NCBI GenBank assembly: GCA_016219705.1
Contig: JACRKQ010000062.1
Location: 1 to 35,857 of the forward strand
Length of the DNA: 35,857 nucleotides
Source: Candidatus Saganbacteria bacterium
GTDB taxonomy: Bacteria > Margulisbacteria > WOR-1 > O2-12-FULL-45-9
Direction of reading: 5' to 3'
Part shown: positions 4,440 through 35,857 of the stretch, in pieces
How positions within the stretch are numbered: position 1 is the stretch's first letter
Layout: each line of letters starts with the position of its first letter
Position numbers and translations under genes: made by a program
The notes under the pieces: model-generated
Seen by the model: only the letters and a program-made list of their open reading frames with translations
Told to the model about the DNA's origin: nothing
Database searches by the model: none

Positions 4440-4448
4440 GTCTAAACC

Positions 4449-6077: not shown

Positions 6078-6082
6078 AAAAA

Positions 6083-6108: not shown

Positions 6109-6131
6109 TAAAATTTAGATTAAACTAATTT

Positions 6132-6416: not shown

Positions 6417-6636
6417 GTTGAGTGTCTCCTTTGATTATTTTTTCTGCTGATTAATGGGGCTGTGGAAGCCTGAAACGAGGCCACAACATAACTTAGCTTG
6501 CAGATAAACATAAGATCTAACCATTAACTTCGACTTAGTAAAGATATCATGGATGCCGTTAAATTGCAATAGTCCACCCAAGAACAGAAATAGAGAATGG
6601 AACCGAGGCTTTTAGCCTCAGGTTTCATCCTAAAAC

Positions 6637-7623: not shown

Positions 7624-7707
7624 CCTCTTTTATTTGATCAAGAGTTATGATATCATAAAAACACTTGCAGCAAAACACATTTTCCTGCGCAAGAGAGGTG
7701 TAAAAAA

Positions 7708-8573: not shown

Positions 8574-8577
<4 letters not shown>
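7708..8577 (+). CDS. SPFH/band-7 (stomatin/prohibitin-like) membrane protein
   Basis: N-terminal TM helix followed by a band-7 domain (IRIVRPTHRGLIERFGKY...). Ala/Glu-rich coiled-coil tail. Confidence 0.8.
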
Positions 8578-12895
<4,318 letters not shown>

Positions 12896-12898
12896 AAC

Positions 12899-13876
12899 TT
12901 AAACCAAATATTTGGAGGCCTTCATGAATTTAAAAACTTCGGCTAAAACCACCTGTTTGACAACTGCCAAATCAGACTGAATTGTCACCCCCGCCGCCCG
13001 AATATGACCGCCCCCGCCGAAACGCCGGGCGATTTCTGAAACATTGACCTTTGATTTGGAACGGAAATTTACTTTTATTTTATCAGCATCCTGCCGAAAA
13101 AGAATCGCCACTTCCACTTTTTCGATTGACCGAATCTGATCGATTAGTCCAACCAGGTCCTCGCTCTTAGCGTTATGTTTTTCCATTATTTCTTTTGTTA
13201 CGGCGGCCCAGGCCACAGTATGATCCGGAGTAACTTCCAGGGTAGCCAGCGCCGCGGCAAAAACGCGCACCCCGGACAAACTTCTGGTATCATAAATTCT
13301 GGTCGTCAAGCTGTGCGTCTCCACCCCGGCTTTTAACAGGTCGATCGCCATGCAAAAAGTTTCCACGGAAGTGTTTTCATAACGGTAATTGCCGGTATCG
13401 GTTATCAGGGCGACATAGAGGTTTTCCGCGATTTTTTTGTCGATTTTAAATTTTAAGGCCTTAATTAAATTGTAAACTAGTTCAGCGGTCGATGAAGCGC
13501 GCGAGATATAATTAATGTCGCCATAGCTGGTGTTATCATGGTGATGGTCGATATTGATTATCAATTTGGCGATTTCGCGGGGCTTAAATTTTTCACCCAG
13601 CCTTTTAATGTCAGAGGCGTCGACGGAAATTAGAAGATCATAGCGTCGGTTTGGTTCAAGGCGGGTTTTGACCAGTTCCGAAGCGGGGAGAAAACGATAA
13701 ATATGGGGAACGCCATCCTGGGAATAATGGTCAACTGTCAGCCCCATTTCTGACAAAAAAATTGCCAGGGCATTCATCGAACCGATAGAGTCTCCATCCG
13801 GATCGATGTGGGAAACGATCAGCGCAGTCTTAGCGCTTTTGAGCGCTTTTTTTATGGCTTGGAAGGTTTCGTTCAT
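12899..13876 (-). CDS. nrnA: DHH-family phosphoesterase (NrnA-like bifunctional oligoribonuclease/pAp phosphatase)
   Basis: HIDPDGDSIGS and IDHHHDN (DHH) motifs, plus a GGGH DHHA1 motif. Confidence 0.75.
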   Translation of the reverse strand: MNETFQAIKKALKSAKTALIVSHIDPDGDSIGSMNALAIFLSEMGLTVDHYSQDGVPHIYRFLPASELVKTRLEPNRRYDLLISVDASDIKRLGEKFKPREIAKLIINIDHHHDNTSYGDINYISRASSTAELVYNLIKALKFKIDKKIAENLYVALITDTGNYRYENTSVETFCMAIDLLKAGVETHSLTTRIYDTRSLSGVRVFAAALATLEVTPDHTVAWAAVTKEIMEKHNAKSEDLVGLIDQIRSIEKVEVAILFRQDADKIKVNFRSKSKVNVSEIARRFGGGGHIRAAGVTIQSDLAVVKQVVLAEVFKFMKASKYLV

Positions 13877-21181: not shown

Positions 21182-22062
21182 TGACCAATTACCCTTTCCA
21201 TTTGCTCCCAAAACCGCCCGGTCAGGCTGATTTTAAGTTTATAGCAGGGGATATTTCTGGCCAGATGACAGGCATTATCAAAAATTTTCAGCTTGGTCTG
21301 GGTCTCTTCACTCTCCGAATAGGCTCGGAGACTGCGGCGGAACATTTGAAAACCGGCATCGTAAATTGAAACAGCCGCAACATTCTTTTTCATAACCTCT
21401 GCCGCATCATTTTCCGCCTGTTCCAAAAAGAATATTCCCTTAAGCGAATAAAATTGTTCAACCGGCCAATTCTTTTGGCCGTCATTTTTCCATAAATAAT
21501 TGCTCCAGGTCGGAAAAGGATGGACGAAATAGCGGCCAGCCGATTTAAAAATAATCGCCTCATCATCGGAAATCGCCTCCCAGGGATGAGGGATACGGCG
21601 GCAGCAGGTCGATTTGCCGGTATTGCCGGGCGCAGAGAGAAGATAGGCCGAACCTTCTTTGACCACAAGTCCAGAGTGAAAAGGCATGCCCTCTAGCGTT
21701 ATCGCCAGCTCGTGGACAAAATAAAGAAGATACCACATGCAAATTATGTTCATATTGTGGTCCTTATTATTTATATCAACTTTAACGACCAGATGGGAAT
21801 TTTGCGGATGCTGCCATAATTTGAGGTTCTTAAAATCCCTTACCTGCCAGCCGGTTTGAGTCATTTCCGGAATATCTTGCAGCGGAGGAAAATCCTTATC
21901 ACCGTCTTTGGGAAAGATGTAAACTTTCGCTCGATTGTCAGAAGCTTGCGTCGTTTTAAGCCTCATTATCGAAGCTAATTTCCGCAGGAAAGGTTCCACT
22001 TCCGGCTGGCCCGCAACCATCTCCCACTCACGCCCGGCAAACAATCGCAAGAGAAACGGCAT
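21178..22062 (-). CDS. HPr-kinase/phosphorylase-like P-loop protein, copy 1
   Basis: The P-loop LSAPGNTGKSTCC resembles the HprK C-terminal domain. Clear paralog of the protein at 26321..27238. Translationally coupled to the upstream rSAM gene. Confidence 0.65.
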   Translation of the reverse strand: MPFLLRLFAGREWEMVAGQPEVEPFLRKLASIMRLKTTQASDNRAKVYIFPKDGDKDFPPLQDIPEMTQTGWQVRDFKNLKLWQHPQNSHLVVKVDINNKDHNMNIICMWYLLYFVHELAITLEGMPFHSGLVVKEGSAYLLSAPGNTGKSTCCRRIPHPWEAISDDEAIIFKSAGRYFVHPFPTWSNYLWKNDGQKNWPVEQFYSLKGIFFLEQAENDAAEVMKKNVAAVSIYDAGFQMFRRSLRAYSESEETQTKLKIFDNACHLARNIPCYKLKISLTGRFWEQMERVIGQ

Positions 22063-23138
22063 TAGACAATCAATCGCGTACGGGGGAATAATTTTTTATT
22101 ATGAGCCTGCTGGCAGTACCAAAAAGAGGCCCAGAGATTTTTGGTCGAATAATAGTTTTGGGCGAGACAAAACCCCAGACAGCGGTTTTTCATGACGCAA
22201 TCATGGCAAACCCCTTCGAGGTCTTTGGGTAATCCATCACGGATCTTATTTAACATTGGATTATTTTGCCAAACATCGGCCAATTTGTCTTTCGCCGCAT
22301 CGCCAAAGTTAAATTCCGGCACTGTTTCGCCAATGCCGCAGAGCGCGTAGTGTCCGTTGCTTAAAACTCCAATAATGCCAAAAATGCCGCAGGTGCCGCA
22401 ACCGACGGCATTTTCCTTGCCAAAGATCCTCCCCAATGGCCGGAAAGCGACCGGATGGCTGTAGATCAATTTTATCTTGACCTGTTTAGCCAGGGTGTTT
22501 TCAATCCAGGCGCCAAGCTCGACTAATTCTTCCAGGGATAAAGTCTCGTCATTTTCGTGCATCTCTTTACCGCGGGCGGTTGGTTGGATCAAGTTAAATT
22601 TGACCGACCCGGCGCCATTTTTCTCGGCCAACTTGACAACATCTTCTATCTGATCTTTATTACGCCGCATGATCGACATGATGACCTGGGGCTTAAAACC
22701 GGCTGTCACTAAATTTCTGACGCCAGTCCATGCCGCTGCAAAACTTCCGGGGACCCGCCGTACCCATTCGTGGGTGGCGGCGTCCGCCCCGTCGACGCTG
22801 ACCGAAACAAAGGCCCCTTTGGCCGTCTTCATCTTTTGCGCCAATTCTGCTGTGCAGAGAACGCCATTGGTTTCAACCGTCAAATTTAATTTATTGACAA
22901 TAATGTAATCAAGAATAGCCTTGATGTCGGGATGGAGGAGTGGCTCTCCGCCGGTTAATTTAACCCCGGTTAAACCTAACGGTTTTGCCTGCTCAATAAT
23001 TGACTTAAACAAATCAAGCGGCAGAGAAGCAAAAACGTGCTGACCGTTCTGGAATTTCGGCTGGATCCAGCAGTGCCGGCAAAAGAGATTACACCCTTCG
23101 GTCAGGTAGAAATAGATACAGTTTAATTTTGGTGGCAT
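22062..23138 (-). CDS. Radical SAM / SPASM-domain peptide-modifying enzyme, copy 1
   Basis: The CNLFCRHC motif matches CxxxCxxC. The C-terminal Cys cluster (CGTCG...C...CHDCVMKNRCLGFC) is typical of SPASM auxiliary clusters. Confidence 0.85.
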   Translation of the reverse strand: MPPKLNCIYFYLTEGCNLFCRHCWIQPKFQNGQHVFASLPLDLFKSIIEQAKPLGLTGVKLTGGEPLLHPDIKAILDYIIVNKLNLTVETNGVLCTAELAQKMKTAKGAFVSVSVDGADAATHEWVRRVPGSFAAAWTGVRNLVTAGFKPQVIMSIMRRNKDQIEDVVKLAEKNGAGSVKFNLIQPTARGKEMHENDETLSLEELVELGAWIENTLAKQVKIKLIYSHPVAFRPLGRIFGKENAVGCGTCGIFGIIGVLSNGHYALCGIGETVPEFNFGDAAKDKLADVWQNNPMLNKIRDGLPKDLEGVCHDCVMKNRCLGFCLAQNYYSTKNLWASFWYCQQAHNKKLFPRTRLIV

Positions 23139-23599: not shown

Positions 23600-24715
23600 A
23601 TGAGCTCTTTTGTCTTACTTGGCGTCAATAGTTTTAACCCCGCTCTCTGCGACGGCGTTTCCAACAGCATCCTGGAGCTGATGGCTTTTTTGAAAAATAA
23701 AGGCCACCAAGTAAAAATAATTAATTATCTGACAGGAGAACCATACCGTCAGTTTATCTACAAGCAATTCAATAAAAATTCAACGAATTGGCAGGATGTC
23801 GGTTATCAGCTTACGGTCTCCGGCCTTGAAGTTGTGATGCGGCTTTTGCCTGACCGGGAAAAAGCTTCTCAATCTCAAGCGGTCAAACTAATTATGCGGG
23901 AGATAAAAGATTTACAGATAGATTTTGTTTTGACGATCGATAATTGCTTCTCCGCCCTTTTAGTCGCGCATTTGCTGAACATTCCCGGGGCCCATTGGTT
24001 TCATTCGGAAGCATACGTTAAAGAATTTCGCAACAAACCCTATTATCTAATGATGCTAAAAAATCGACAGGTATTGGCAACTTCACAGTATATCCAAGCC
24101 CGCATCAAAGCTTGTCTAGATCTGAATTCAATTGTCTGGTATCCGATCATTGACTTTAACCGCTGCCAAACCACAACCCAGACGACCACGGCTAATAATC
24201 TCGGTTTTTATTCCGGCGGGCCGCATAAAGGGGACGAGCTCGTGAATTACTTGATTGGACAGATGCCAGAGTACAATTTTATTACCGCGGGAAGATTGTT
24301 TCAAAGTATTTTTAAGACGGCTCCAAAAAACCTGGAAATATTAGGCGATGTGGCTGATATTAAAACTTTTTACCAAAAGATAAAATTATTGCTTGTCCCC
24401 TCTTTGGTCCCCGAAGGTTTTGGCCGGGTCATTGTGGAGGCGGCCGCCAATGGCATTCCGACTATTGCCAATAACGTCGGCGGGATTCCCGAAGCGCTGG
24501 GACAAAGCGGCCTATTGGTTGATGTTGAAAATATCAAACAGCCAAATATGCCTTTGTTGGTAAATAGATATCAAAGCATAATCGAACAGCTCTGCAACAA
24601 TAAAACAGATTATGATCTCTGTCAACAGCAAGCTTTAGCGCAAGCAAAAAAATATAAATTTTTACAGGAGCAGATGAATAATGAAAACTATCGCCTTATT
24701 ACTGGTAAAAAATGA
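23600..24715 (+). CDS. Glycosyltransferase, GT-B fold (family 1/4-like)
   Basis: The C-terminal motif EGFGRVIVEAAANGIPTIANNVGGIPE is typical of GT1/GT4 nucleotide-sugar binding. Confidence 0.75.
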   Translation: MSSFVLLGVNSFNPALCDGVSNSILELMAFLKNKGHQVKIINYLTGEPYRQFIYKQFNKNSTNWQDVGYQLTVSGLEVVMRLLPDREKASQSQAVKLIMREIKDLQIDFVLTIDNCFSALLVAHLLNIPGAHWFHSEAYVKEFRNKPYYLMMLKNRQVLATSQYIQARIKACLDLNSIVWYPIIDFNRCQTTTQTTTANNLGFYSGGPHKGDELVNYLIGQMPEYNFITAGRLFQSIFKTAPKNLEILGDVADIKTFYQKIKLLLVPSLVPEGFGRVIVEAAANGIPTIANNVGGIPEALGQSGLLVDVENIKQPNMPLLVNRYQSIIEQLCNNKTDYDLCQQQALAQAKKYKFLQEQMNNENYRLITGKK

Positions 24716-25637
24716 AGGTTGGATCTTGCCGACCACGCTACCTCAACTGAATAAATTTGTTGACGAAATCCTCGTCCTTGATACCAGCTCAACAGATAAT
24801 TCGCTAGCTATTTTAAAACACCTTAACATCTCTTTTCGACAGAAGAAATATGACACGCCGATAATTGACAATTCTGTCTGGCGGACAGAATTGCTGGATT
24901 GGGGACGCAGCCGCGGCGGGACCCACTTTGTCTGCCTGGACGCAGACGAAGCTTTTACTTCTCATCTCCTCCCGCATTTTAATGAATGGTTAAGCCGGCT
25001 GGAGCCTGGGGAAAAATTAATGCTTGATTGGCTGACCACCTGGAAAAGTCCGACCAAAATCAGAGTTGATAATTCCATTTGGAAAAAGATTCCCAAAGAT
25101 TTTATTTTTCGCGATCAAGCCGGCTTGCAGTTTGACGGGCAAACAATGCATGAGAACAGAACTCCAGGAAGTGGTAAGGCTAAATATGTGCCTCGCGAAA
25201 GAGGGGCGGTTTGGCATTTCCAATTTGCCGCTTTTGCCAGGTTTCAAATGAAGCAGGCTTTTTATCGAGTTAAGGAATTAAATGATAAAGGCCAGGCGAT
25301 GGATAATTTTAAATTAATCGACAGGATCAATAATTTTTACTCGATAACTTTGGATAATAGCGCCGCCCAGTGCGCAGATGCGCCAAAAAATTGGTACAGC
25401 GGCCTGCAAAATCTGGATAATATAAAAAATGCGCCGATGGGCTGGTTTTTACCGGCCATACTTGATTATTTCGCGCAAAAAGGGCTTGAGTATTTTGAGC
25501 CGCTGCAGATTTGGCACATTTCAGACCTTGAGGCCGAGTTTAGGCAAAAAATTGGCCGCGGTCCGAGATCGCTGTCACTGCCGCCTAAGCCGCGGATTGT
25601 CTCTTCTTCATGTCTTATGGGAGCTGATTCCTGGTAG
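24681..25637 (+). CDS. Putative glycosyltransferase, GT-A/family-2-like
   Basis: N-terminal IALLLVKNEG...ILVLDTSSTDNS and a later CLDADE motif. Confidence 0.5.
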   Translation: MKTIALLLVKNEGWILPTTLPQLNKFVDEILVLDTSSTDNSLAILKHLNISFRQKKYDTPIIDNSVWRTELLDWGRSRGGTHFVCLDADEAFTSHLLPHFNEWLSRLEPGEKLMLDWLTTWKSPTKIRVDNSIWKKIPKDFIFRDQAGLQFDGQTMHENRTPGSGKAKYVPRERGAVWHFQFAAFARFQMKQAFYRVKELNDKGQAMDNFKLIDRINNFYSITLDNSAAQCADAPKNWYSGLQNLDNIKNAPMGWFLPAILDYFAQKGLEYFEPLQIWHISDLEAEFRQKIGRGPRSLSLPPKPRIVSSSCLMGADSW

Positions 25638-26336
25638 TTGGTATTGTTCAATGATGGCAGCGAAAGCGCTTTTTTCCCGCTCAAAAATTTCTGTAAATTT
25701 TTCTTTGTCCAGGGTCAACTTAATAGTTGTATTGTGTTGATGCCAAATGTAATGGGCCAGGTCGATAACTGTCCTCTGGCCATTTTTCCTGGCCATCTGG
25801 TAGATAAAATCGTCGCCAAAGAACAGTTTTATTGGCGCGGGGATATTTTGCCATTCTGATCGCCGGCCAAAAATAAACCAGCCAATCCGTTCAAATTTTA
25901 ATTTATGTTCCGCGCCTAAATCTTGGAGATTAGGAGGATGATTTTGTCCTTTAAACAATCTGCTATACAAATCTGGGTGAAGATTATCCAGGCTTCTAAA
26001 AGTGACAAGCCCGATAGTCGGGTCTTGAATAATCTTCTCGCCTTTGCTTATAACCCGATCCCAAATTAAGCAATCATCGTTCAGCAGCAGGTAATAATCG
26101 GTTGTGGCCTGTTTAAGTCCCAAATTCCAGCTCTCATTAACATTAAAACGTTGATTAAAATGCGTTACTTTTAATCTGGGAGAGGAGCAATATTTTTTGC
26201 ATTCATTATCAAGGGTATTATCAATAATATGAATATAGCAATTTTGAGTCAGCAGCAAGTCCAGACTTTTCTCCAACATTTGCGGCGCCTGATTTAGACT
26301 GGGGATGATAACTGTGGTGTTTATCGTTTTAGGCAT
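25608..26336 (-). CDS. Glycosyltransferase family 2-like, short (242 aa)
   Basis: VIIPSLNQ...IIDNTLDN and LLLNDDCLIW (DxD-like) motifs. Overlaps the 3' end of the HprK-like copy 2. Confidence 0.6.
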   Translation of the reverse strand: MPKTINTTVIIPSLNQAPQMLEKSLDLLLTQNCYIHIIDNTLDNECKKYCSSPRLKVTHFNQRFNVNESWNLGLKQATTDYYLLLNDDCLIWDRVISKGEKIIQDPTIGLVTFRSLDNLHPDLYSRLFKGQNHPPNLQDLGAEHKLKFERIGWFIFGRRSEWQNIPAPIKLFFGDDFIYQMARKNGQRTVIDLAHYIWHQHNTTIKLTLDKEKFTEIFEREKSAFAAIIEQYQLPGISSHKT

Positions 26337-27238
26337 GTACTACTAAATACATTTTTTGTTAATTCATAATTGTTGATCGCCACCTCCATCTTATTCCAAA
26401 ATCGGCCGGTTAAGGTAAAATACAGGCGATGACAGGGAAGAGTACGAGTTAAGTTATAGGCATTATTGAATATTTTTAATTTCATCTTTGTAATTTCTTT
26501 TTTTGGAAAGCCGCTTAAATTTCGATGAAATATTTGCATCGCCCCATTATAAACAGCACCGATAGTAGTATTGTGACGTAATGATTCCACTCCATCTTCC
26601 ATCGCTTGTTTAAGAAAAAAAAATCCTGCTAGCGGATAAGCTTTTTCCACTGCCCAAGTTTTTTGATCAACATTCTCCCTGCAAAAATTACTAAAAGTTG
26701 GTAAGGGGTGTACCCAATATTGAGAGCCATGCTTAACAATTAGTGTTTCGTCATCAGCCAACGCTTGCCAAGGGGAGGGAATTCTTTGACAACAGGTCGA
26801 TTTCCCAGTGCCAGCAATAGCGGGGAGCAAATAAGCTTTGCTCTCTTTAATCACCATCCCCGCATGAAATGGCAGTCCGTCGGCATTAATCATCTCCTTA
26901 TATATATAAGTCAAAAGAAAGGATAAACAGTGTATCTCCATATGGCTATTTGGAGATGGGTCAAAACCAACTATTAAATGCGGCTCCTGGGGATGATCCA
27001 AAATCTTCACAGTCCCAAAATCTCGTACCCGCCAGTCGGGAGAAAAAAACTTCATTATTTTTTGATGGAATAGTTTTTCATTATTCAAAGAATAGAAATA
27101 TATTTTAGTATGATGAGAAATCGGAGCAACAATCAGCTGCATAATTGCGGCTAGTTTTTTTAACAATGCTTTGGCTTCCTTGCCAACGGCAACTAACTCC
27201 CACTTATGTCCATCAATCAAACGTAAAAGATAAGACAT
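26321..27238 (-). CDS. HPr-kinase/phosphorylase-like P-loop protein, copy 2
   Basis: P-loop LPAIAGTGKSTCCQRIPSPW. Collinear similarity to copy 1 throughout (LLRL...GxxWE, HAGMVIKESKAYLL, WVHPLPTFSNF). Starts 6 nt after precursor 1. Confidence 0.65.
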   Translation of the reverse strand: MSYLLRLIDGHKWELVAVGKEAKALLKKLAAIMQLIVAPISHHTKIYFYSLNNEKLFHQKIMKFFSPDWRVRDFGTVKILDHPQEPHLIVGFDPSPNSHMEIHCLSFLLTYIYKEMINADGLPFHAGMVIKESKAYLLPAIAGTGKSTCCQRIPSPWQALADDETLIVKHGSQYWVHPLPTFSNFCRENVDQKTWAVEKAYPLAGFFFLKQAMEDGVESLRHNTTIGAVYNGAMQIFHRNLSGFPKKEITKMKLKIFNNAYNLTRTLPCHRLYFTLTGRFWNKMEVAINNYELTKNVFSSTCLKR

Positions 27239-27244: not shown

Positions 27245-27463
27245 TTATGAAGCGGTGCCGCCAGCAGAACAGCTACCTCCATTCCCTCCCTCGTTACATG
27301 CATAATTACTTAAACCGATGCCGCAAGACGAGAGAGGAGTCGAAGCTGATGTCCCGGTGACACAGCGATTTGTAGCGCTAGCCCCAGGACTACACTCTGC
27401 TGCAAATACTGAAACATTAAAAGAATCTTCTAAACATGGCTTCTCATACTTTATCTTTTCCAT
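27245..27463 (-). CDS. Precursor peptide 1, 72 aa. The leader carries the motif KIKYEKP. The core is Gly/Ser/Thr/Ala-rich with 6 Cys.
   Basis: MEKIKYEKPCLEDSFNVSVFAAECSPGASATNRCVTGTSASTPLSSCGIGLSNYACNEGGNGGSCSAGGTAS. A strong RBS AAGGGGG sits 8 nt upstream of the ATG. Confidence 0.7.
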   Translation of the reverse strand: MEKIKYEKPCLEDSFNVSVFAAECSPGASATNRCVTGTSASTPLSSCGIGLSNYACNEGGNGGSCSAGGTAS

Positions 27464-27493: not shown

Positions 27494-27802
27494 TTACCCC
27501 ACCGGTACTTCGACTTTCGTCAAGCGGCTTTCAACACCATCCAGCCGCCGATCCTGCTCCCGATCTTTCCCAACTGCCAAAGTCCTGTCCTCTCGCGCTT
27601 TGACTAGCTCGTCCATCACACCGTCTAATTTATTCAAAACATCATCTTTATGCTGTTTGCTCTCTTCCCGCAATTGCTTCATTTCTCCTCTCATCTCATT
27701 CTTAAACTGCGCTAAATCTTCCTTCGTTGCAAAGTTTTTCAAATCTTCCTTCGTTGCGAAAACTGTCTTTAATTTAGTGATATCCTTATCCGTAATTGCC
27801 AT
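27494..27802 (-). CDS. Hypothetical charged coiled-coil protein, 102 aa
   Basis: Highly charged helical sequence with a duplicated FATKEDL motif. RBS AGGTGA. Lies between rSAM copy 2 and precursor 1. Confidence 0.4.
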   Translation of the reverse strand: MAITDKDITKLKTVFATKEDLKNFATKEDLAQFKNEMRGEMKQLREESKQHKDDVLNKLDGVMDELVKAREDRTLAVGKDREQDRRLDGVESRLTKVEVPVG

Positions 27803-27878: not shown

Positions 27879-28997
27879 TCATGGCGCTGTCGCCACCAAG
27901 TTTTCGTCGGGCAAAACGCCCCCCTGGGACAGGAATTTTTTCAGGCAGGCATCGGGGCTGGGGCCGTATATTTCCCCCGTCAAGGTGTAGGAGAGCGCCG
28001 GGCAGCCGCCGCGGCAATAAGAAATATATTCGCAAGCACGGCAATCTGCAAATCTGTCGAGCGGAATTTCTCGCCGCTGCCTGAATTTAATCAATTCTGG
28101 GTGGTTAAGCCAGATGTCTTTTAGGTTCTCTTGATTTATCCGGCCCAGTTCAACGTCGTTGATCTGCGCGCAAGGAACGATAACCCCATCCGCCCGCACC
28201 GCCAATTTGCTAAAAACACCGCCGCAGCTGGTTAACAAACCGCAACCTCCTTCTCCTTCTCGCCCTTCTCGTTGAGCTTTTACCATTTTTAACCAGAATT
28301 TTGCTTCTGCCAGTGGACCAGCGGCGGCCGAAATACGATTACCATATTTTTGAATCAATTTTAACAAAGAGTTCATGGCAACTGTTCGTTCCGCCGGTGT
28401 CAACTGGATCTCATCAGAATTTTTCTGGCACAAACCAAGATAGGAGGCGGAATTGGTGGAAAATCCCGGCAAACCTAGGTCTTCAATAAGTAATTTGGCG
28501 ACATTTTCGAGATCATGGACATTATAGCGGTTGATGGTAACACGAACGGTTGTTGATAATTTGTATTTTTGCAGCTGCTTGACGGCGGCGACAGCTTTAA
28601 GGAATGTCCCTTGGCCGCGGCTGGCCTCGTGGATAATGGGCTGGGAACCGTCGATGGAGACCTGGACACTGTTGCAGCGTTTAGTCGCCGCTAAAAACTC
28701 CGCCCACTCTTCGGTAATTAAGGTGCCATTACTTAGGAGGCTAAAGCGCAGCCTGTTTTTGATAATGCCGTTGATAATCTCTTTTAAGTCAGAGCGAAAG
28801 AAGGGCTCGCCACCGGCCAGGCAGATATTAAAAACGCCGATTTTAGTTGCTTCCTCAAAGAACTTCAGCCATTCGGCCGCTGGAAGATCCTTTTCCACAC
28901 TGCCTGTACTGGTAAAATGGCTGCAATACTTACAGCGCAGGTTGCAATTGTTGGTAATATTAATGTCTACCCCTGACGGGGCGCTAATAAGTTTCAT
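27879..28997 (-). CDS. Radical SAM / SPASM-domain peptide-modifying enzyme, copy 2
   Basis: CNLRCKYC matches CxxxCxxC. C-terminal Cys-rich SPASM region (CGLLTSCGG...CAQ...CRACEYISYCRGGC). Lies 10 nt downstream of precursor 2. Confidence 0.85.
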   Translation of the reverse strand: MKLISAPSGVDINITNNCNLRCKYCSHFTSTGSVEKDLPAAEWLKFFEEATKIGVFNICLAGGEPFFRSDLKEIINGIIKNRLRFSLLSNGTLITEEWAEFLAATKRCNSVQVSIDGSQPIIHEASRGQGTFLKAVAAVKQLQKYKLSTTVRVTINRYNVHDLENVAKLLIEDLGLPGFSTNSASYLGLCQKNSDEIQLTPAERTVAMNSLLKLIQKYGNRISAAAGPLAEAKFWLKMVKAQREGREGEGGCGLLTSCGGVFSKLAVRADGVIVPCAQINDVELGRINQENLKDIWLNHPELIKFRQRREIPLDRFADCRACEYISYCRGGCPALSYTLTGEIYGPSPDACLKKFLSQGGVLPDENLVATAP

Positions 28998-29006: not shown

Positions 29007-29210
29007 TCATCCTACTCCAGTTCCCGAATTGCATAAAGGCGGCGCACCTGGGGCGGAAGTCCCGCTAATACACCCATTAGCGCCAGTGGCCGATGTCCCA
29101 GTATTGCAATTATCAGTTGCAGAACTTCCTGTGCTACTACAGGGAGCCGCCTGCACTTCTCCAGAAAAATCTACCAGCTCTGGTTTCTCATACTTGATCT
29201 TTTTTTGCAA
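29007..29210 (-). CDS. Precursor peptide 2, about 67 aa from a TTG start. Same leader and core motifs as precursor 1. The core has 4 Cys.
   Basis: (M/L)QKKIKYEKPELVDFSGEVQAAPCSSTGSSATDNCNTGTSATGANGCISGTSAPGAPPLCNSGTGVG. RBS GAGGGG sits 6 nt before the TTG at 29210. The ORF track extends to 29420, but no ATG lies near the conserved leader. Confidence 0.6.
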   Translation of the reverse strand: MQKKIKYEKPELVDFSGEVQAAPCSSTGSSATDNCNTGTSATGANGCISGTSAPGAPPLCNSGTGVG

Positions 29211-29238: not shown

Positions 29239-29267
29239 TTTACACCAAAATAGTTATCTTGTATAAT
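29239..29267 (+). promoter_or_regulatory. Sigma70-like promoter for mtnP: TTTACA, 17-nt spacer, TG-TATAAT. It gives a near-leaderless transcript.
   Basis: TTTACA at 29239-29244. TGTATAAT at 29260-29267. The first in-frame ATG overlaps the -10, so the start is more likely the ATG at 29275. Confidence 0.4.
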
Positions 29268-29274
29268 GGTAATC

Positions 29275-30009
29275 ATGGTAAAAATTGGTATTATCGGCGG
29301 TTCGGGGTTAGACAATCCTGACATTTTAAAAGAGGCCGTCGACAAAAGTGGCGCCAATAAATACGGCCAGCCATCTTCTCCCCTAGCCTGCGGCAAAATC
29401 AACGGCGTGGCAGTCGTCATCCTGTCCCGCCATGGGCGCGATCACAGCATCATGCCGACCAAAGTTAATTTTTTAGCTAATGTGTACGCGCTGAAAGAAG
29501 AAGGCTGCACCCATATCCTGGCTGCCACAGCCGTCGGTTCGCTGCGAGAAGAGATCGCGCCCGGCAACCTGGTCTTTCCGTCGCAATTTATCGATTTTAC
29601 CCGCCGCCGCAATTTAACTTTTTTCACCGATCATGTCATCCATACCCCGATGAGCGATCCTTATGATAAACGATTGACCGATATTTTATGCCAGACTTGC
29701 GGCGAATTAAATTATAAATATAACCATGATGTCACGGTTATAACCATTGAAGGGCCCCGCTTCTCAACTCGGGCGGAGAGCCAGATGTTCCGCGCCTGGG
29801 GCGCTGATATTATTAACATGTCGACCTGTCCGGAAGTTATCCTGGCCAATGAGCTGGGGATCCCCTATCAGACCATCGCTATGTCAACAGATTACGATTG
29901 CTGGAAAGAAGATGAAGCGCCGGTCACTTTTGCCATGATCATGGAGCGAATGAAGGAAAACGCTGACAAAGTCAAAAATCTGTTAATTAACGTCGTCAGG
30001 AGGATATAA
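29275..30009 (+). CDS. mtnP: S-methyl-5'-thioadenosine phosphorylase / purine nucleoside phosphorylase
   Basis: [11 protein letters not shown]-terminus and [17 protein letters not shown] motif. The ORF track starts at 29266. Confidence 0.85.
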
Positions 30010-30536
30010 TGCCGATCAAATCACGGATCAGAACAGTGCCGCATTGGCCGAAGAAAGGAATCATGTTCCGGGATATCACGACGCTATTAAAGGATCCAGT
30101 CGGACTAAAAATCTGCATCGATGATTTTTTGAACCGCTACAAAGACAATAAAATTGATATTGTCGTCGGTATTGATTCGCGCGGCTTTATTCTCGGCGGC
30201 GCCCTGGCCTATTTATTAAATAAAGGGTTTGTCCCGGTCCGTAAAAAGGGGAAACTGCCGGCGGAGACAGAGAAAGAGGAATATACGCTGGAATATGGCA
30301 CAGATGTTATTGAGATCCACAAAGACGCCATTGAGCAGGGGCAAAAAGTTCTCATCATTGATGATTTGATCGCCACCGGCGGGACCGCTCTGGCCGCCGC
30401 GAAATTAGTGCAGAAACTCGGCGGTGAGATCGTCGAATTAGCTTTTATGGTTGATTTGCCTGATTTAGGCGGCAGGAAAAAATTGGCAGCGGCCGGTTAC
30501 AAAGTATACGCGCAAACGGAATTCGCCGGGGAATGA
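30009..30536 (+). CDS. apt: Adenine phosphoribosyltransferase
   Basis: PRPP-binding motif [13 protein letters not shown]. 175 aa. Confidence 0.85.
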
Positions 30537-31531
30537 AAGTCAAAGGTCAACATTATCGGACCATTTGGTTTGCCCCGCCTGTTGTCTTCTTAATCGAACA
30601 AAATCTCCTCCCTTTTTCTTTTCAAATCGTTAAATGCGCTGATTTTCAGGCGACTTGCCGGGCAATTAAAAATATGACCGTGCGCGGGGCTGGAGCGATT
30701 GGCGCGGCGGCGGGGTTTGCCATGGCGCAAGCTTTATTAGCCAAAGTTGATCCGCTGAAAGCCAAAAAAGAGATCGAAGCGACGCGGCCAACCGCGCAGA
30801 ATCTGTTTTACGCGGCAGAGCGGGTCTTCCAGGCCGCCGATCCTGTCGCTTGCGCCCAAAAGATCGCCGACGAAGACGCCGCAAGCTGCCAGAGAATCGG
30901 CGAGCTTGGCAGTCAATTAATTATAGACGGAATGAGAATAGAAACACATTGCAACGCCGGCTGGCTGGCGTTTGTCGATTATGGCACGGCTCTTGCGCCC
31001 ATTTACGCCGCCAGAGATCAGGGCAAAAATGTTTTTGTTTATGTCGATGAAACACGGCCGCGCGGCCAGGGAGCGCGCCTGACCGCCTGGGAATTATTCA
31101 ATGAAAAAATTCCGCACGCGATTATTCCCGATAACGCCGGCGCCTCCTTAATGTCGCAGGGGAAAGTTGATATGGTAATCGTCGGCGCTGACCGCATCGC
31201 CGCCAATGGCGACGTTGCCAATAAGATCGGCACTCTGGAAAAAGCGCTTGCCGCCCATGAATATGGCATCCCCTTTTACGTCGCGGCGCCAACGGCAACC
31301 ATTGATTTGCAGTGCGCTTCCGGCCAGGACATCCCGATTGAAGAAAGAAGTGAAAAGGAAGTTACTCACCAGTCGGGTATTAATGAAGAAGGCCAAAATT
31401 CCACTATCCTGGTCTGTTCCCCCGGATCAACGGCGTATAATCCGGCATTTGATGTTACTCCCGCCAAATACATCACAAAAATCATCACGGAGAGAGGGGT
31501 TGTGGCTGCTCCAGCAGCTCTTTTTCTTTGA
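30533..31531 (+). CDS. mtnA: S-methyl-5-thioribose-1-phosphate isomerase (eIF-2B-like family)
   Basis: [18 protein letters not shown] motif of the MtnA/eIF2B family. 4-nt overlap with apt. Confidence 0.8.
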
Positions 31532-31763
31532 GAGAATTGATAAACTCTTCCACATCTGCGGCGACGTTTTCCGGCACATTGTCGCAAGATTCTTTTACTC
31601 TGGCGATAATTTCTGCAACCTCGTTTTTACCGTCTAATAATTTGGTCACAAGCACCGAAGTCGGGTTGAGTCCAAAAGTATTCCCCGTATCCGGATCAAA
31701 CAATACCCCCCATTCATCCAGTTCCTCCCGCAAAACAATCGAATCAAGCAATTTTGGCTGCAT
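31485..31763 (-). CDS. PqqD-family protein (RiPP recognition element-like peptide chaperone)
   Basis: 92 aa. Motifs VLFDPDTGNTFGLNPTSVLVTKLLDGKNEVAEIIARV...[14 protein letters not shown] match the PqqD pattern (LN-T---I---LDG---V-EI...V-EFL--L---GLI). Confidence 0.7.
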   Translation of the reverse strand: MQPKLLDSIVLREELDEWGVLFDPDTGNTFGLNPTSVLVTKLLDGKNEVAEIIARVKESCDNVPENVAADVEEFINSLKEKELLEQPQPLSP

Positions 31764-31801
31764 CTTTCATTCCCTCCCTTTGGTTTATTCTCGCAAATTA
31801 A

Positions 31802-32302
31802 TCATGGCCTTGTCAACAACGAATTCAGGCGATAATTGAGCCGGCCGGTCATATGCCGGCAGGCGCGGCGCAGTTTTTTATTAAGCAGGAGTTTTAAGGC
31901 CGGGGCAAGACAGCGATAAAAATAATGAGACATAATGTTATAGAAAGCGCGCTGATCCTGCCGTGTGAACATCTGCCGCCTTCCCCGAAAAATCTCTTTC
32001 ACCCGCCCGATGATCTGCTCGCTTTTGATGCTGCTGGCCGTCAGATTATTATCCCCTTTTTCCAGGAAACTTATTTCCCGGCTATTTTTGTTAACGCGAA
32101 CAATGCGATGGCAGATCAATTTCCCATACCCCTGAAAAACAACGATATCCCCGGCTTTGATGGCTTGAGGCAGGACATTTTCCAGAAAAATAACGTCCCC
32201 TTCTTTAAGGGTCGGCGCCATGCTCCGGCCGATAAGTTTGGAGACTTTAAATTTCTTTAATTTCTGCAGCGGGGATAATTGGTTAATGTCTATATTATTC
32301 AT
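31802..32302 (-). CDS. S24/S26-family (signal-peptidase-I-like) serine peptidase and putative leader peptidase
   Basis: GRSMAPTLKEGDVIFL matches the S26 Ser box (SMxPTL). GDIVVF follows downstream. A start at the internal Met gives an ATGA overlap with the upstream gene. The ORF track extends to 32368. Confidence 0.6.
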   Translation of the reverse strand: MNNIDINQLSPLQKLKKFKVSKLIGRSMAPTLKEGDVIFLENVLPQAIKAGDIVVFQGYGKLICHRIVRVNKNSREISFLEKGDNNLTASSIKSEQIIGRVKEIFRGRRQMFTRQDQRAFYNIMSHYFYRCLAPALKLLLNKKLRRACRHMTGRLNYRLNSLLTRP

Positions 32303-33417
32303 TGCCTTTTTTTTGCAAAAAAACTGCCGTAAAACACCATCATAGGATACCATAGATAATGCCGCCAAGTAATCTCGTCAGCAGAGCGCAGGTTAAAAGC
32401 TGCAACAACCTTATCGCGATGAGGGATGAAATAAGGCCCGATAACGGGAAACAATTCTTGCGGTGAATCTAAGATCAATAAGCGCCAAAAATACCTGCGC
32501 CCTTTATTACCGGATATTATCAGTTTATACGGAAATTTTGTGATGAGAAAACGGTTAATAAAAGAAGTTTTTGGCAGCCTTATTAATAATTTTTCAGGGG
32601 AATCAACTTTCAATAACTCGCGCCTTAATCTCAAACATAATAAAAAAGCCTTGGTCATATTATAGCTTTTGATTAGACCAATAAATTTATCCCAATCAAT
32701 TTCCTGCTCATATCTTAGGATAATTTCCGAAACGTCGACCAATAACTTTAAAGAGGCGAAGGACTTATAAAAGAACATGATCAGAGCATGCAGTAAGAGG
32801 ATCTCGGGTGGAAACATTTTATATTGGAAACCGGCAATATTTTCTGATCGAATATCCCGCCATAAAATCTCCGGCGGGATGCGACAGCGATTGAATGGCG
32901 CCAGATTCCAATGGATCTCCACTCCGCCAATTTCTGGGTGCGTTAAAACTAAATGCTGGCTTTGTTCCAGAAAATATTCCTCTGACAAAGACTCAATACT
33001 TTTCCAGCCGGAATTAATCAATAAATCCCGGGTCTTAATCAGCTCGTTTTCCCTGACCAGGAAATCAATATCGCTGGAATGGCGTAAAGCAATATTGCCA
33101 TAAATTAATTCGGCCCAGACGGGCCCTTTCAGCGCTATAAAGTCGATTCCTTCTTCTGCCAATAATCTAAAAATTTTCTTCTGTCTGGCGTCCAAAGTTA
33201 GGTTATGGATGAGATTATAACGGTAAATTGCCTGTAATGAGGCTTTAGCCGCCGGGGGGATTGATTTATCTCTAAGGTTTAAATATAATAGCGGCGCCAC
33301 CTGGTTGACCAGCGCCAGATCGATTAAATGATCCCAATCGATTTTCCCGTTTAAGAGAGTGTTAATTGCAGAAGTATCTGCTCTGGTTTTAGCGCAAGCA
33401 AAAAGCAATTGGTCCAT
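32299..33417 (-). CDS. Putative nucleotidyltransferase-family protein of the type often found with PqqD-like genes
   Basis: 372 aa. The GPVWAELIYGNIALRHSSDIDFLV region resembles a minimal nucleotidyltransferase fold motif (G[SG]...D.D). Confidence 0.45.
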   Translation of the reverse strand: MDQLLFACAKTRADTSAINTLLNGKIDWDHLIDLALVNQVAPLLYLNLRDKSIPPAAKASLQAIYRYNLIHNLTLDARQKKIFRLLAEEGIDFIALKGPVWAELIYGNIALRHSSDIDFLVRENELIKTRDLLINSGWKSIESLSEEYFLEQSQHLVLTHPEIGGVEIHWNLAPFNRCRIPPEILWRDIRSENIAGFQYKMFPPEILLLHALIMFFYKSFASLKLLVDVSEIILRYEQEIDWDKFIGLIKSYNMTKAFLLCLRLRRELLKVDSPEKLLIRLPKTSFINRFLITKFPYKLIISGNKGRRYFWRLLILDSPQELFPVIGPYFIPHRDKVVAAFNLRSADEITWRHYLWYPMMVFYGSFFAKKRQ

Positions 33418-33422
33418 TCTGC

Positions 33423-35857
33423 TTATTTCGCCGCTGCTTTATAAAGCAGGTAGACAGTGACAACTGATGTTGTCAATTGGGTGATTGCTGTCATTGCCGC
33501 CCCTGTCGTTTGCCAGAATTGGTTCCAATCAAAAGGTTTTTCGTAACGAGCTACTTCACCTGGTTTAGTCGGCACCAGAATGGTATCGCCGGGAGCGATC
33601 GTTAACAGCCAGCGGTCTTTTTCCGTCCGCCCGTTAGCCCGCAGGACAGTAACATTGTTAAGATCAGCGTATTTATTGCCGCCGCCACAAAGATTAATAT
33701 AATAATTGGCTGATTTTCCCTGTTCGTAAAGCAGGCTGGCGCCGGAGGAATAAACATCGCCGATAACGGTGACCGAATTTATCTGGTCGGGGATTGTTAA
33801 AGTGTCGCCATTTTGCAGGACGATGTCCCATTCATTACCCGGCCGGATTTTATTTAAATCAAGCAGGATACGGCCGGGAATTTCCCAATTAATTTTATTT
33901 AAATTGAAATCATAATAGCGTTTGATTTGTTCCGTGCGGTAAAGATTTTCTTCACTGGACAGCCCCATTGGGATGCTCAATAATTCCCGCTCTTCCCGTG
34001 TCTGCAGATCGCGCTGCAGCTGGGTTGCTTCGCTTGTCAGCTGTTGTTTTAACGATTCTCTGGTAAAAACCGCTCCCTCTAAGAAGGCCTTTCCTGTAAA
34101 ACCGCCGGCCCGGGTAACAACTGAACTTAATCTTTCGTTGGGGAAAAGGACATATTTGCCGGGATATAAAAAATTCCCTTGCAAGGTGACTGTGCTGTTG
34201 ACCCGATAATCAGGCAGCCGTCTTATGATTAAATAATCATCTTTTTCCAACAAAAGATCCTCGGTTTTGTCTTTATTTTCTAAAACTAACCGCAAATCAA
34301 TGTTATAAAGATCTATTTTGGCATAGCTTATGGCCCGATAGAGCTCCGCTTTTTCCAGATAAGCGCTCTTTTTAACCCCGCCAGCCTGGAACACCAGGTC
34401 GCTGACCCGCATATTAGCCGTGAGTGGATAGGTTTTATCGCCATCGTTAACCTCACCGGCAATATAAACTTTAGACTCACCCTCAATCCCTTTCTTAGAA
34501 AAAACCCGAACCCGGTCAAATTCCTTTAAAAGAGGATTATTACCCAAATCTCCTTGTTTCGTCTTATTTAAGTCGATAGCCAAGACTTCTGGATGCATAT
34601 CTGGAGGGGCAAGGCGAAAGATTTGGGCGCGGCCAAGATAAGCGTCAGAGGAGAGCCCTTGGGCCTTGTTTAATAAATCTTCTAGCCGCATCTCGCTGGT
34701 TAATTCATACCGCCCGGATCTAGTCACACTCCCTTCTAAGTAAACAACTTTCCTGATGGTAGCATCAATAGAGAAAATGGCAATCGAATCAAGATTCTCC
34801 AGGTAAACCGGATTAACATTTTTAACCTTGAGATAATCGGCATAATTTACATCTTGCGCTCTCTGTTCAATATTTTTGCCGCGTCGTTCAATTTGAATTC
34901 GTTGCAGATAAGAGGTGGGAGTAATGCCGCCGGCTAATTCTACAAAATCACTAAGTTCTGTCGTCCCTTTTAATTCATAAATCGCCGGGCGGTTGACATT
35001 GCCGCTGATAGCCACGACCTTGCCAATCAGCGGCACGCGGATCACATCACCGCTCTGGAGTAAAAGATCCCCCGCTTTGCTGCCGGATAGAATAAATTTA
35101 TACAAATCAACCGTTTTAATTTTCTGACCGTTACGCACGAGTTCGATATTGCGCAATGTCCCGGCGCGCGTCGGGCCGCCGCCCAGAAAAACCGCGTCAT
35201 ATAAAGTGGTATTGGCCAGGGTGGTGTAAGCGCCCGGCTTATTTATTTCACCCGTCAAGTAAATTTTAATTGCGCCTATTTCTTTAAGGGTCAAATCAAC
35301 ATTAAAATCGGTGACAAAGACAATGGCCAGTCGCTGCATTAAGAGCTCTTTTGCTTCGGCCAAAGTAAGCCCGGCTATTGTGACCACGCCAACTTTGGGG
35401 ATGACGACAGAGCCGCGATCATCAACGATCATGGCGAAAGAATCATTAACACTACCCCAGATGGTGACCAATAAATTATCCCCGGGATTAATGCGGTAAT
35501 TGGGTCCAATGGGAAGACTCGATATCAGGGCGAATTTTTGCCCGACAGTTCGCTGAAAGACATCATAGCCGAATTGACGCAGGGTTCCCAACACTTGTTG
35601 AGTCGGTCTCATTTCATCTTTTATTTTACTAATGAAACCTTTTTCGATAGAAGAAAATGCCTCTTTAGGCTGTTCAGCCGGGCTATTGTCAACGGGAGAA
35701 ACGCTTGACTGGCCTTCAGTTGGTTTGGCCGCCGAAGCGCTACTTGGTGACGATGGTTGAGTGGGCGCGGTTGGCGGTGACACAGTGGGATCAACTATCT
35801 CCTTTATTTTACTTTTTTCTTCCGGCGTTAAATTTTGCAATTTTTGCTTTTGCTGGG
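33423..35857 (-). CDS. Polysaccharide-export-type (Wza/KpsD-like) periplasmic protein with about six SLBB repeats and a C-terminal TM helix. The N-terminus lies outside the window.
   Basis: Poly_export-like motif YRINPGDNLLVTIWG. Repeated SLBB-like units (...KPGAYTTLANTTLYDAVFLGGGPT; ...RPAIYELKGTTELSDFVELAGGIT; ...). The frame is open to the window edge. Confidence 0.7.
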   Translation of the reverse strand, partial: QQKQKLQNLTPEEKSKIKEIVDPTVSPPTAPTQPSSPSSASAAKPTEGQSSVSPVDNSPAEQPKEAFSSIEKGFISKIKDEMRPTQQVLGTLRQFGYDVFQRTVGQKFALISSLPIGPNYRINPGDNLLVTIWGSVNDSFAMIVDDRGSVVIPKVGVVTIAGLTLAEAKELLMQRLAIVFVTDFNVDLTLKEIGAIKIYLTGEINKPGAYTTLANTTLYDAVFLGGGPTRAGTLRNIELVRNGQKIKTVDLYKFILSGSKAGDLLLQSGDVIRVPLIGKVVAISGNVNRPAIYELKGTTELSDFVELAGGITPTSYLQRIQIERRGKNIEQRAQDVNYADYLKVKNVNPVYLENLDSIAIFSIDATIRKVVYLEGSVTRSGRYELTSEMRLEDLLNKAQGLSSDAYLGRAQIFRLAPPDMHPEVLAIDLNKTKQGDLGNNPLLKEFDRVRVFSKKGIEGESKVYIAGEVNDGDKTYPLTANMRVSDLVFQAGGVKKSAYLEKAELYRAISYAKIDLYNIDLRLVLENKDKTEDLLLEKDDYLIIRRLPDYRVNSTVTLQGNFLYPGKYVLFPNERLSSVVTRAGGFTGKAFLEGAVFTRESLKQQLTSEATQLQRDLQTREERELLSIPMGLSSEENLYRTEQIKRYYDFNLNKINWEIPGRILLDLNKIRPGNEWDIVLQNGDTLTIPDQINSVTVIGDVYSSGASLLYEQGKSANYYINLCGGGNKYADLNNVTVLRANGRTEKDRWLLTIAPGDTILVPTKPGEVARYEKPFDWNQFWQTTGAAMTAITQLTTSVVTVYLLYKAAAK

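Follow-up and report, generated by a model that had tools for sequence, protein, structure and literature searches.

A Wza-like exporter gene adjoining probably displaced accessory genes of an Scm peptide cassette in Candidatus Saganbacteria

The four-gene run at the contig end

The window analyzed here is an entire contig of 35,857 bp (JACRKQ010000062.1) from a metagenome-assembled genome of Candidatus Saganbacteria. At its high-coordinate end, four minus-strand genes are transcribed in the following order: a Wza-like outer-membrane polysaccharide export (OPX) gene, a PF14907 nucleotidyltransferase (NTase) gene, an S26 peptidase gene and the PqqD-family gene for ScmD. The last of these belongs to a SynChlorMet (Scm) cassette for a peptide made by the ribosome and modified after translation (RiPP), and the rest of the cluster lies 2–12 kb downstream of the run, on the same strand except for two glycosyltransferase genes. 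We consider it probable that the run is a junction, in which the displaced accessory half of the Scm cassette (NTase, S26 peptidase and ScmD) meets an ordinary exporter gene.

33423–35857, minus strand: Wza-like OPX gene, 5'-truncated by the contig end, with Poly_export, multiple SLBB domains and a hydrophobic C-terminal helix
32299–33417, minus strand: PF14907 (NTP_transf_5) NTase of the pol-beta fold, 372 amino acids (Pfam, 165.8 bits)
31802–32302, minus strand: SEC11/SipW-type S26 Ser/His/Asp peptidase with no membrane anchor (TIGR02228, Peptidase_S24/S26)
31485–31763, minus strand: ScmD, a PqqD-family leader-binding protein (RiPP recognition element, RRE), 92 amino acids (PF05402, TIGR04248)

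The order and spacing of these genes, as given in an initial annotation made from the sequence alone, were recovered on reading the sequence, except that the Wza-like gene is partial. Its stop codon is followed after 5 nt by the NTase ATG at 33417, and the NTase TGA and the S26 ATG overlap as ATGA at 32302–32299. Because this overlap sets the start of the S26 protein, its length is 166 amino acids, as in the NCBI annotation. A 38-nt spacer containing a AAGGGAGGG Shine–Dalgarno sequence precedes the ATG of the ScmD gene at 31763. Searches for the PqqD, Peptidase_S24/S26, NTP_transf_5, and Poly_export plus multiple SLBB/SLBB_2 domains all returned matches. The proposal that the four genes form one operon holds in part: the tight junctions favor co-transcription, while the start of the unit lies off the contig and a promoter-like site (TTGACA-18-GAGAAT with the TG of an extended -10; 31816–31787, minus strand) is located just 5' of the ScmD gene. 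Genes on this contig are tightly packed even when functionally unrelated, as truB and ligA overlap by 1 nt. In such a compact genome, the 5-nt gap therefore favors co-transcription and says little about shared function, and transcription of the Scm genes most likely continues from the Wza-like gene. The equally tight packing of truB and ligA is also what would be expected if the adjacency were pure coincidence, with an exopolysaccharide (EPS) locus abutting a rearranged RiPP cluster, a functionless read-through, and any recurrence of such neighborhoods reflecting shared flexible genomic islands. We regard this explanation as possible, and its further evidence is considered below.

The Wza-like protein matches Poly_export (61.1 bits), SLBB (148.8 bits) and SLBB_2 (128.9 bits) in Pfam. 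Its reading frame is open up to the last contig base, 35857, and NCBI annotates the gene as 'partial', with 810 amino acids. The closest orthologs (55–57% identity) comprise 825–850 amino acids and carry an N-terminal signal peptide (MKK...VLA↓A), which is absent from the window copy. Since the frame extends to the contig edge and the orthologs are longer, approximately 35–40 N-terminal codons, the promoter and all upstream genes lie off the contig. The TTG at 35840, listed by the open reading frame (ORF) tool, was rejected as the true start, given that the frame runs off the contig and the NCBI entry is partial. The closest orthologs, in the related loci L039, L040 and L041, adjoin Wzz amid GT4, EpsG/Wzy_C, Bac_transf, Polysacc_synt_2, DegT and epimerase genes. 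L039 and L040 are complete Wzx/Wzy loci with no Scm genes and no radical SAM or precursor genes. Because its closest orthologs occupy standard polysaccharide loci, the window gene is, by this comparison, an ordinary polysaccharide OPX, and it probably closes a Wzx/Wzy-type EPS locus whose other genes lie beyond the contig end. It shares Poly_export, SLBB repeats and a hydrophobic C-terminal helix with the Wza/OPX proteins of Wzx/Wzy EPS and capsule loci; unlike these, it is 5'-truncated and is followed after 5 nt by RiPP accessory genes instead of polysaccharide genes. Its scores against the pepcterm_export and EpsE models (108.5 bits, cutoff 180, and 122.5 bits, cutoff 262.65) are both below threshold, and in contrast to the OPX of the XrtA/PEP-CTERM EPS export module, it is of a different, multi-SLBB type.

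The 92-residue ScmD protein matches PF05402 with 58.9 bits (E 6e-16, cutoff 23.4). On a hidden Markov model (HMM) made from ScmD proteins of related loci, it scores 120.8 bits, whereas PqqD proteins of lasso-peptide clusters reach 74 and 37 bits. It is 42–55% identical to the relatives' ScmD proteins, which are encoded directly 5' of ScmE. This is the sole RRE-type/PqqD gene in the window, and the window ScmE lacks the usual upstream ScmD. The assignment of the PqqD-like protein to a RiPP pathway is thus upheld, as it does match PqqD and groups with ScmD proteins; for the exporter gene the outcome is the opposite, its orthologs residing in EPS loci without radical SAM or precursor genes.

The accessory genes and the Scm cassette

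A genome scan with ScmE yielded 27 true Scm loci from Saganbacteria/Margulisiibacteriota, Vulcanimicrobiota, Nitrospirae, several Deltaproteobacteria, Omnitrophica, Victivallales, Chlorobium and Methanotrichaceae/Methanosarcinales, and a metagenome scan with a ScmF alignment added 80 further loci; the ScmC alignment was too divergent to serve as a seed. The ORFs of the related loci were searched by iterated HMMs from the window proteins, and the counts refer to 102 non-redundant loci, none of which was selected through Wza. The canonical order is ScmD-ScmE-ScmF-precursor(s)-ScmC-S26-(ABC)-NTase on a single strand, with short or negative gaps, and the S26 and NTase genes, where present, usually come after ScmC. 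An S26 gene occurs in 47/102 loci, an NTase gene in 29/102 and either in 57/102; for the 47 loci whose sequence continues for 3 kb or more beyond ScmF, the corresponding numbers are 31, 21 and 35. The set includes the archaeal loci L020 and L021. In L012, the two proteins are fused (11649–13640, plus strand; Peptidase_S26 at residues 13–70 and NTP_transf_5 at 294–544, Pfam), and a second single-ORF fusion is encoded at L062:2436–3956 (plus strand). The best orthologs of the window S26 (42% identity) and NTase (41%) both lie in L126, where overlapping genes are arranged as NTase-S26-ScmE-ScmF, with the same NTase-to-S26 order as in the window. Because ScmD is the sole PqqD gene, ScmE has no upstream ScmD, L126 shows this arrangement and the genes co-occur across the family, the S26, NTase and ScmD genes appear to be displaced but genuine Scm components. 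On the strength of this co-occurrence, the S26 peptidase and the PF14907 NTase are RiPP-cassette components that recur across bacterial and archaeal phyla, in agreement with the initial annotation. The order Wza-NTase-S26-PqqD, which that annotation took to be a unit whose conservation could be sought in relatives, was present in no relative examined; by comparison with them, the genes have been rearranged locally and do not form a conserved operon. This absence, together with the canonical order of the other Saganbacteria Scm loci (L007 and L025), which have no OPX gene in range, also agrees with a coincidental adjacency.

The three accessory genes could instead serve the polysaccharide pathway, for example in EPS-associated protein modification or processing, and have no part in the RiPP cluster. 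In line with this idea, the closest homolog of the window NTase outside L126 (31%, L035) belongs to a purely glycan-related locus, where its gene immediately follows Glycos_transf_4, and PF14907 genes are also found beside batteries of glycosyltransferase genes. The idea is nevertheless disfavored, and we judge it very improbable: S26 and PF14907 genes accompany ScmC/D/E/F in dozens of EPS-free loci, including archaeal ones, the window ScmE has no other PqqD partner, and L126 sets the orthologous NTase-S26 pair directly upstream of ScmE-ScmF.

The S26 protein matches Peptidase_S24 (31 bits) as well as S26, and it exceeds the cutoff of TIGR02228, the archaeal/endoplasmic reticulum (ER)-type signal peptidase I family (73.6 bits, cutoff 51.85). 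Its catalytic motifs SM.P, HR and GDNN (SMAPT, CHR and GDNN) align to human SEC11A and SEC11C. In contrast to the ER/archaeal signal peptidase I enzymes (SEC11 and SipW), with which it shares these motifs, the window protein has no transmembrane anchor, is encoded with a RiPP cassette and is sometimes fused to the NTase in relatives. Its maximum 19-residue Kyte–Doolittle mean is 1.28, the catalytic Ser is residue 27 of 166, and no hydrophobic segment above a Kyte–Doolittle value of 1.6 is found in it or in the 16 Scm-linked homologs examined. The reading as a housekeeping signal peptidase was set aside on account of the missing anchor and the linkage to the cassette. Without an anchor, the enzyme should act in the cytoplasm, which fits a leader peptidase and not a secretory signal peptidase, and we propose the former as its putative role. 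SodX is a cytoplasmic S26 maturation protease that cuts off an N-terminal pro-sequence; the window S26 would likewise remove an N-terminal pro-sequence in the cytoplasm, with a weak sequence match to this family (TIGR02754, 20 bits). Most Scm-type S26 members possess a conserved C-terminal domain of ~100 residues, which is absent from the 166-residue version in the window. In L125 (43–5456), a small cluster of another kind begins with an S26-like gene from this short subclade and continues with an ABC ATPase, an ABC-2 permease, a PqqD protein, a 50-residue peptide ending ...CPGSFSVGACCP, a 526-residue radical SAM protein and a second Cys-rich peptide. The pairing of PqqD with a soluble S26 protein therefore extends beyond Scm cassettes.

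In the NTase family, an LKG...R..D116-x-D118 motif is present in 37 of the 38 relatives, the exception being a weakly matching ORF in L036; D116, D118 and further residues are invariant in our alignment (A4). An AlphaFold2 model derived from 31 homologs has a mean pLDDT (predicted local distance difference test) of 89, and its Foldseek neighbors include LnuA, ANT(2'')-Ia (5cfs and 4xje), MenT1, TM1012 and the CDP-ribitol phosphotransferase FKRP. Sequence and profile searches against the PDB gave no match; the fold search alone did. In the literature searched, PF14907 appears only in a phosphonate inventory. A parallel is provided by lasso peptides. In pseudomycoidin biosynthesis, the HprK-like kinase PsmK phosphorylates the C-terminal Ser, and PsmN, an 'uncharacterized NTP transferase' modelled on the ANT(2'') entries 5cfs and 4xje, requires its DxD motif and is needed to put one or two hexoses on the PsmK phosphate (PMC6993621). 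The NTases of lasso clusters are sometimes fused to the B2 leader peptidase (PMC8498205). The link drawn in the initial annotation between such NTases and lasso clusters is borne out by L037 and L122, in which PF14907 genes lie with PqqD, Transglut_core3, kinase and ABC exporter genes. The kinase in these contexts weakly matches the Pfam ScmC and Hpr_kinase_C families, and in L122, the lasso-cluster PF14907 gene is followed by at least six glycosyltransferase genes. L122 (1–694 and 991–15194) also contains a second PqqD gene overlapping an S26-like gene.

Like the paeninodin (pade) and pseudomycoidin (psm) clusters, the latter with PsmB1 (PqqD), PsmB2, PsmK, PsmN and PsmD (ABC) (PMC6993621, PMC8498205), the window encodes an RRE, an HprK-like kinase, a DxD NTase and an ABC exporter. 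Both NTases have an ANT(2'')-like fold, and in both systems the NTase is at times fused to the leader peptidase, which is B2 in lasso clusters and S26 in Scm relatives. The differences are that Scm cassettes have two radical SAM/SPASM maturases in place of the Asn-synthetase-like cyclase, and that the Scm peptidase is an S26 Ser/His enzyme, whereas the lasso B2 protein is a transglutaminase-type Cys protease. PsmN is presumably a PF14907 member, judging by its description and by the L037 and L122 contexts. With this parallel as a guide, we propose that the window NTase may be a PsmN-like tailoring enzyme. The window was rejected as a lasso-peptide cluster, having neither a cyclase nor a B2 peptidase; in Pfam searches of selected non-overlapping window ORFs, Asn_synthase and Transglut_core3 had no match.

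The remaining features of the cluster are the following.

29007–29210, minus strand: precursor 2, MQKKIKYEKPELVDF... followed by a Cys/Gly/Ser/Thr repeat core (from sequence; TTG start, GAGGGG Shine–Dalgarno)
27879–28997, minus strand: ScmE radical SAM/SPASM maturase (TIGR04250, 548.5 bits, cutoff 400)
27494–27802, minus strand: charged, coiled-coil-like ORF of 102 amino acids between ScmE and precursor 1 (ANIS5_cation-bd, 19.4 bits, cutoff 29.3)
27245–27463, minus strand: precursor 1, MEKIKYEKPCLEDSF..., core ending ...GGTAS (from sequence and family alignment)
26321–27238, minus strand: ScmC copy 1, HprK-like P-loop kinase homolog (TIGR04249, 214.8 bits, cutoff 125)
25608–26336, minus strand: GT2 glycosyltransferase inside the cluster (PF00535, E 3.4e-11)
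24681–25637, plus strand: GT2-like glycosyltransferase (Glyco_tranf_2_4, E 1e-4, 23.1 bits, below the gathering cutoff of 27.5)
23600–24715, plus strand: GT4 glycosyltransferase (Glyco_trans_1_4, Glycos_transf_1, Glyco_transf_4)
22062–23138, minus strand: ScmF radical SAM/SPASM maturase (TIGR04251, 571.7 bits, cutoff 400)
21178–22062, minus strand: ScmC copy 2 (TIGR04249, 249.9 bits, cutoff 125)
19445–21181, minus strand: ATP-binding cassette (ABC) exporter with ABC_membrane and ABC_tran and no C39 domain (Pfam)

The window thus agrees with the SynChlorMet cassette in that ScmE, ScmF and the two ScmC copies score above their equivalog cutoffs, a ScmD-like PqqD protein is present, and its relatives cover the same taxonomic range, with Syntrophaceae, Chlorobium and methanogens among them. 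It differs in being split, with ScmD set apart from ScmE. The cassette is divided into three transcription units by the mtnP-apt-mtnA operon and by the glycosyltransferase genes: ScmD and ScmE are separated by ~2.5 kb, occupied by precursor 2 and the plus-strand mtn operon, and ScmF and ScmE by 4.7 kb. The extended gene set also departs from the database definition, as the precursor family, the S26 peptidase, the PF14907 NTase and the ABC exporter have no NCBIfam family model within it. The ScmC family consensus holds a GGTGKST P-loop. The ABC exporter, correctly described at the outset as devoid of a C39 domain, has orthologs at 40–48% identity in the Scm loci L002, L007, L016 and L041; its start is likely the ATG at 21181, which overlaps the ScmC stop (ATGA, 21178–21181), and not the TTG at 21211 chosen by the ORF tool. 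The GT2-like protein has a weak match to SunS-type S-glycosyltransferases (TIGR04195, 17.5 bits, far below cutoff), and a homolog of it adjoins the Chlorobium Scm locus L024. The 102-residue ORF has no NCBIfam match and no homolog among the related loci, and its membership in the cluster is uncertain; a promoter-like site matching at 11 of 12 positions (27870–27841) lies just upstream of it.

The mtn operon (29266–31531, plus strand) encodes MtnP, a 5'-methylthioadenosine (MTA)/5'-deoxyadenosine phosphorylase-type PNP_UDP_1 protein, Apt, and MtnA, an IF-2B family isomerase. The operon and precursor 2 are oriented divergently, with a 55-nt region between them that contains promoter-like sites back to back, and the 3' end of the operon converges on that of the ScmD gene, with an overlap of 47 nt. 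The enzymes could salvage 5'-deoxyadenosine released by ScmE and ScmF; equally, the operon could be a chance insertion. The mtn genes occur in no other Scm locus examined.

Both precursors combine an MxKIKYEKP leader with a Cys/Gly/Ser/Thr-rich core. They belong to a family of 56 distinct sequences from Scm loci (L002–L121), in which the leader, M..KYEKPxLVxL, ends with (K)YEKPxLVxL, lies ~15–25 residues before the core and is followed by 3–12 repeats of C-x-x-G-x-[S/T]-[A/P]. In 26 of the 56, the residue at position -2 relative to the first core Cys is Gly. The precursors were collected by a composition-based search, a strict KYEKP pattern having overlooked most of the loci. No Pfam or NCBIfam model matches them. 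The TIGRFAMs description of the cassette reportedly states that the precursor is unidentified.

Exporter and glycan genes around Scm loci

Genes for an OPX protein and/or a Wzc-type polysaccharide co-polymerase (PCP) lie within 10 kb of 8/102 Scm loci from at least four lineages (L011, L018, L024, L027, L051, L069, L080 and L109). Their arrangements vary. An OPX-Wzc-Wzy_C set is followed after 12 nt by ScmE in L018; L080 reads NTase, 41 nt, OPX, 64 nt, Wzc; and in L069, Wzc runs with its 3' end 4 nt into the start of ScmD. In the Chlorobium locus L024, a Wzc-like PCP gene reads into an ABC_membrane-type exporter gene and converges on S26; an OPX-like ORF of 184 amino acids just upstream of this PCP gene was set aside as weak, uncertain and not confirmed by Pfam. 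L011 has an ABC-2 permease, an ATPase, an OPX and a Wzc gene beside the cassette and no other exporter. In L109, OPX and Wzc genes are on the opposite strand, ~1.4 kb from ScmD, and L051 and L027 have a PCP gene only. These OPX/PCP proteins fall into at least four unrelated groups, and the OPX proteins, at 24–29% identity between groups, do not form one clade. Glycan-related genes flank or interrupt 22/102 Scm loci. In L123, a member of the window S26 subclade with housekeeping genes on one flank, Wzy_C overlaps the NTase gene and GT2 overlaps the S26 gene, and glycan genes also overlap Scm genes in L054, L059 and L091. The L123 cluster (190–9814; also L124), found on at least 24 contigs, reads Wzy_C-NTase-ABC-radical SAM-two precursors (MAKSKYIKPQCEDIF...)-ScmC-radical SAM-PqqD-S26-GT2 and abuts rpsO and pnp.

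L018 (643–9988), L080 (1–6400 and 11162–11998) and L109 (1358–8437), which are Desulfobacterales-like, hold a conserved module beside the Scm genes, comprising HD_5, a pepcterm_ATPase-like AAA_22 protein, OPX, a Wzc-like PCP (with SPOR in L109) and a Wzy_C ligase-like protein. The L018 OPX has an N-terminal FG-GAP repeat region. The best NCBIfam matches of these genes are members of the XrtA/PEP-CTERM export set (pepcterm_ATPase, pepcterm_export, ChnLen/TyrKin and PEP_O_lig_1); in a departure from that set, none of the matches reaches its curated cutoff, and no exosortase was observed.

These neighborhoods raise the question, also posed in the initial annotation, of whether the exporter in the window serves the peptide. 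The OPX and an off-contig PCP would then form a dedicated trans-envelope route by which the mature Scm product leaves the cell once the ABC exporter has passed it on; this product would be either a cross-linked, (phospho)glycosylated peptide or a glycan primed by a peptide, and the process would be comparable to KpsMT-KpsE-KpsD capsule export. The occurrence and varied arrangements of OPX/PCP genes in several lineages agree with this proposal, as does their density: the surveyed flanks of ~0.55 Mb contain ~10 OPX genes per Mb, more than would be expected of a typical genome. Furthermore, L018, L080 and L109 keep the linkage at 36–51% protein identity despite a rearranged gene order and with no glycosyltransferase genes seen, glycan genes overlap Scm genes in L123, L054, L059 and L091, and three glycosyltransferase genes lie within the window cluster. 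The PsmK/PsmN system offers a precedent for a phospho-hexose (PMC6993621). On the other side, the orthologs of the window Wza reside in complete Wzx/Wzy loci without Scm genes (L039 and L040), more than 90% of Scm loci show no OPX/PCP gene, and archaeal members cannot use one. In a Pfam census covering 133 unlabelled flanking ORFs, no family had over three members and no neighbor dominated, which argues against a universal EPS context. The Scm-adjacent OPX proteins are not one clade, EPS loci and RiPP clusters both gather in variable genome regions, and we know of no OPX that passes a peptide. Overall, a dedicated export route for the window appears unlikely.

For the coincidental adjacency introduced above, the high diversity of the cassette flanks and the visible rearrangement of the window cluster, with the mtn operon inserted and glycosyltransferase genes on the opposite strand, are further points in favor. 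It fits less well with L041, where, despite rearrangement and decay, the orthologous Wza (55%) is followed within 2 kb by an NTase gene, an ABC exporter (48%), decayed ScmE fragments, S26 (46%), a radical SAM~ScmC gene and a further radical SAM gene. This stretch (L041:14296–21331) is a decaying or rearranged Scm cluster with two short ScmE fragments (71–74% identity) and a 650-residue radical SAM~ScmC fusion. Chance is also disfavored by OPX/PCP genes that adjoin Scm cassettes independently, at operon-like distances, in three or more other lineages, and by glycan genes interleaved with Scm genes in many loci. A glycan link of the Scm product is therefore plausible from the gene neighborhoods.

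Several observations count against reading the run as a junction between displaced Scm genes and an exporter gene, or against the inferences attached to it. The best NCBIfam match of ScmD, TIGR04248, scores 89.5 bits and so falls just short of the cutoff of 100. The window NTase is only 24–30% identical to Scm-linked NTases other than that of L126 (41%), and 31% identical to the NTase of the glycan locus L035; its Scm allegiance is accepted because of L126 and the family-wide co-occurrence. Co-transcription of the four genes is suggested by their spacing, with gaps of 5 and 38 nt and an ATGA overlap, and the ScmD gene may also be transcribed separately, given the promoter-like site upstream. 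The residues before the first core Cys show no clean A-x-A signal-peptidase motif. The OPX density of a typical genome, 0.5–2.5 per Mb, is a rough estimate, which weakens the claim of enrichment. Taking these points into account, the junction of a displaced accessory half with an ordinary exporter gene remains our preferred, moderately confident reading.

A possible pathway and its significance

From the gene identities and their co-occurrence, we infer the following chemistry for the Scm pathway. ScmD would bind the M..KYEKPxLVxL leader and hand the precursor to ScmE and ScmF, which would cross-link the repeated C-x-x-G-x-[S/T]-[A/P] core. The HprK-like ScmC would then phosphorylate a Ser or Thr, and the PF14907 enzyme may elaborate that phosphate, by analogy with the phospho-hexose made by PsmK and PsmN, so that ScmC and the NTase together would install a phospho-sugar. 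The glycosyltransferases of the cluster may extend the sugar. The cytoplasmic S26 peptidase would cut off the leader close to Gly-x, the motif ahead of the first core Cys, and the ABC transporter would export the product.

The SynChlorMet cassette is widespread and is defined by database family models; a literature search on SynChlorMet, ScmC/D/E/F and TIGR04248–TIGR04251 found no paper describing it. To that definition, the window and more than 100 related loci add a conserved precursor family, a candidate cytoplasmic leader peptidase of the S26 type, which is an unusual protease class for RiPPs, and a dedicated ABC exporter. The kinase/NTase pair matches the only characterized phospho-glycosylating RiPP module. 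These components make the Scm pathway directly testable by heterologous expression. In the event that the glycan link is not confirmed, the Wza adjacency would be an ordinary accident of genome packing. A further and, in our estimation, doubtful suggestion is that Scm peptides are not free antibiotics but (phospho)glycosylated, thioether-cross-linked peptides that enter a polysaccharide export route in diderms via the ScmC/PF14907 handle, glycosyltransferases or Wzy_C-type ligases, and OPX/PCP proteins, here the Wza-like protein. If this were true, the glycan and exporter neighborhood would link ribosomal peptide maturation to polysaccharide export and point to new envelope or matrix chemistry, and the Scm product would be a hybrid of ribosomal peptide and polysaccharide that serves as a surface or matrix component.

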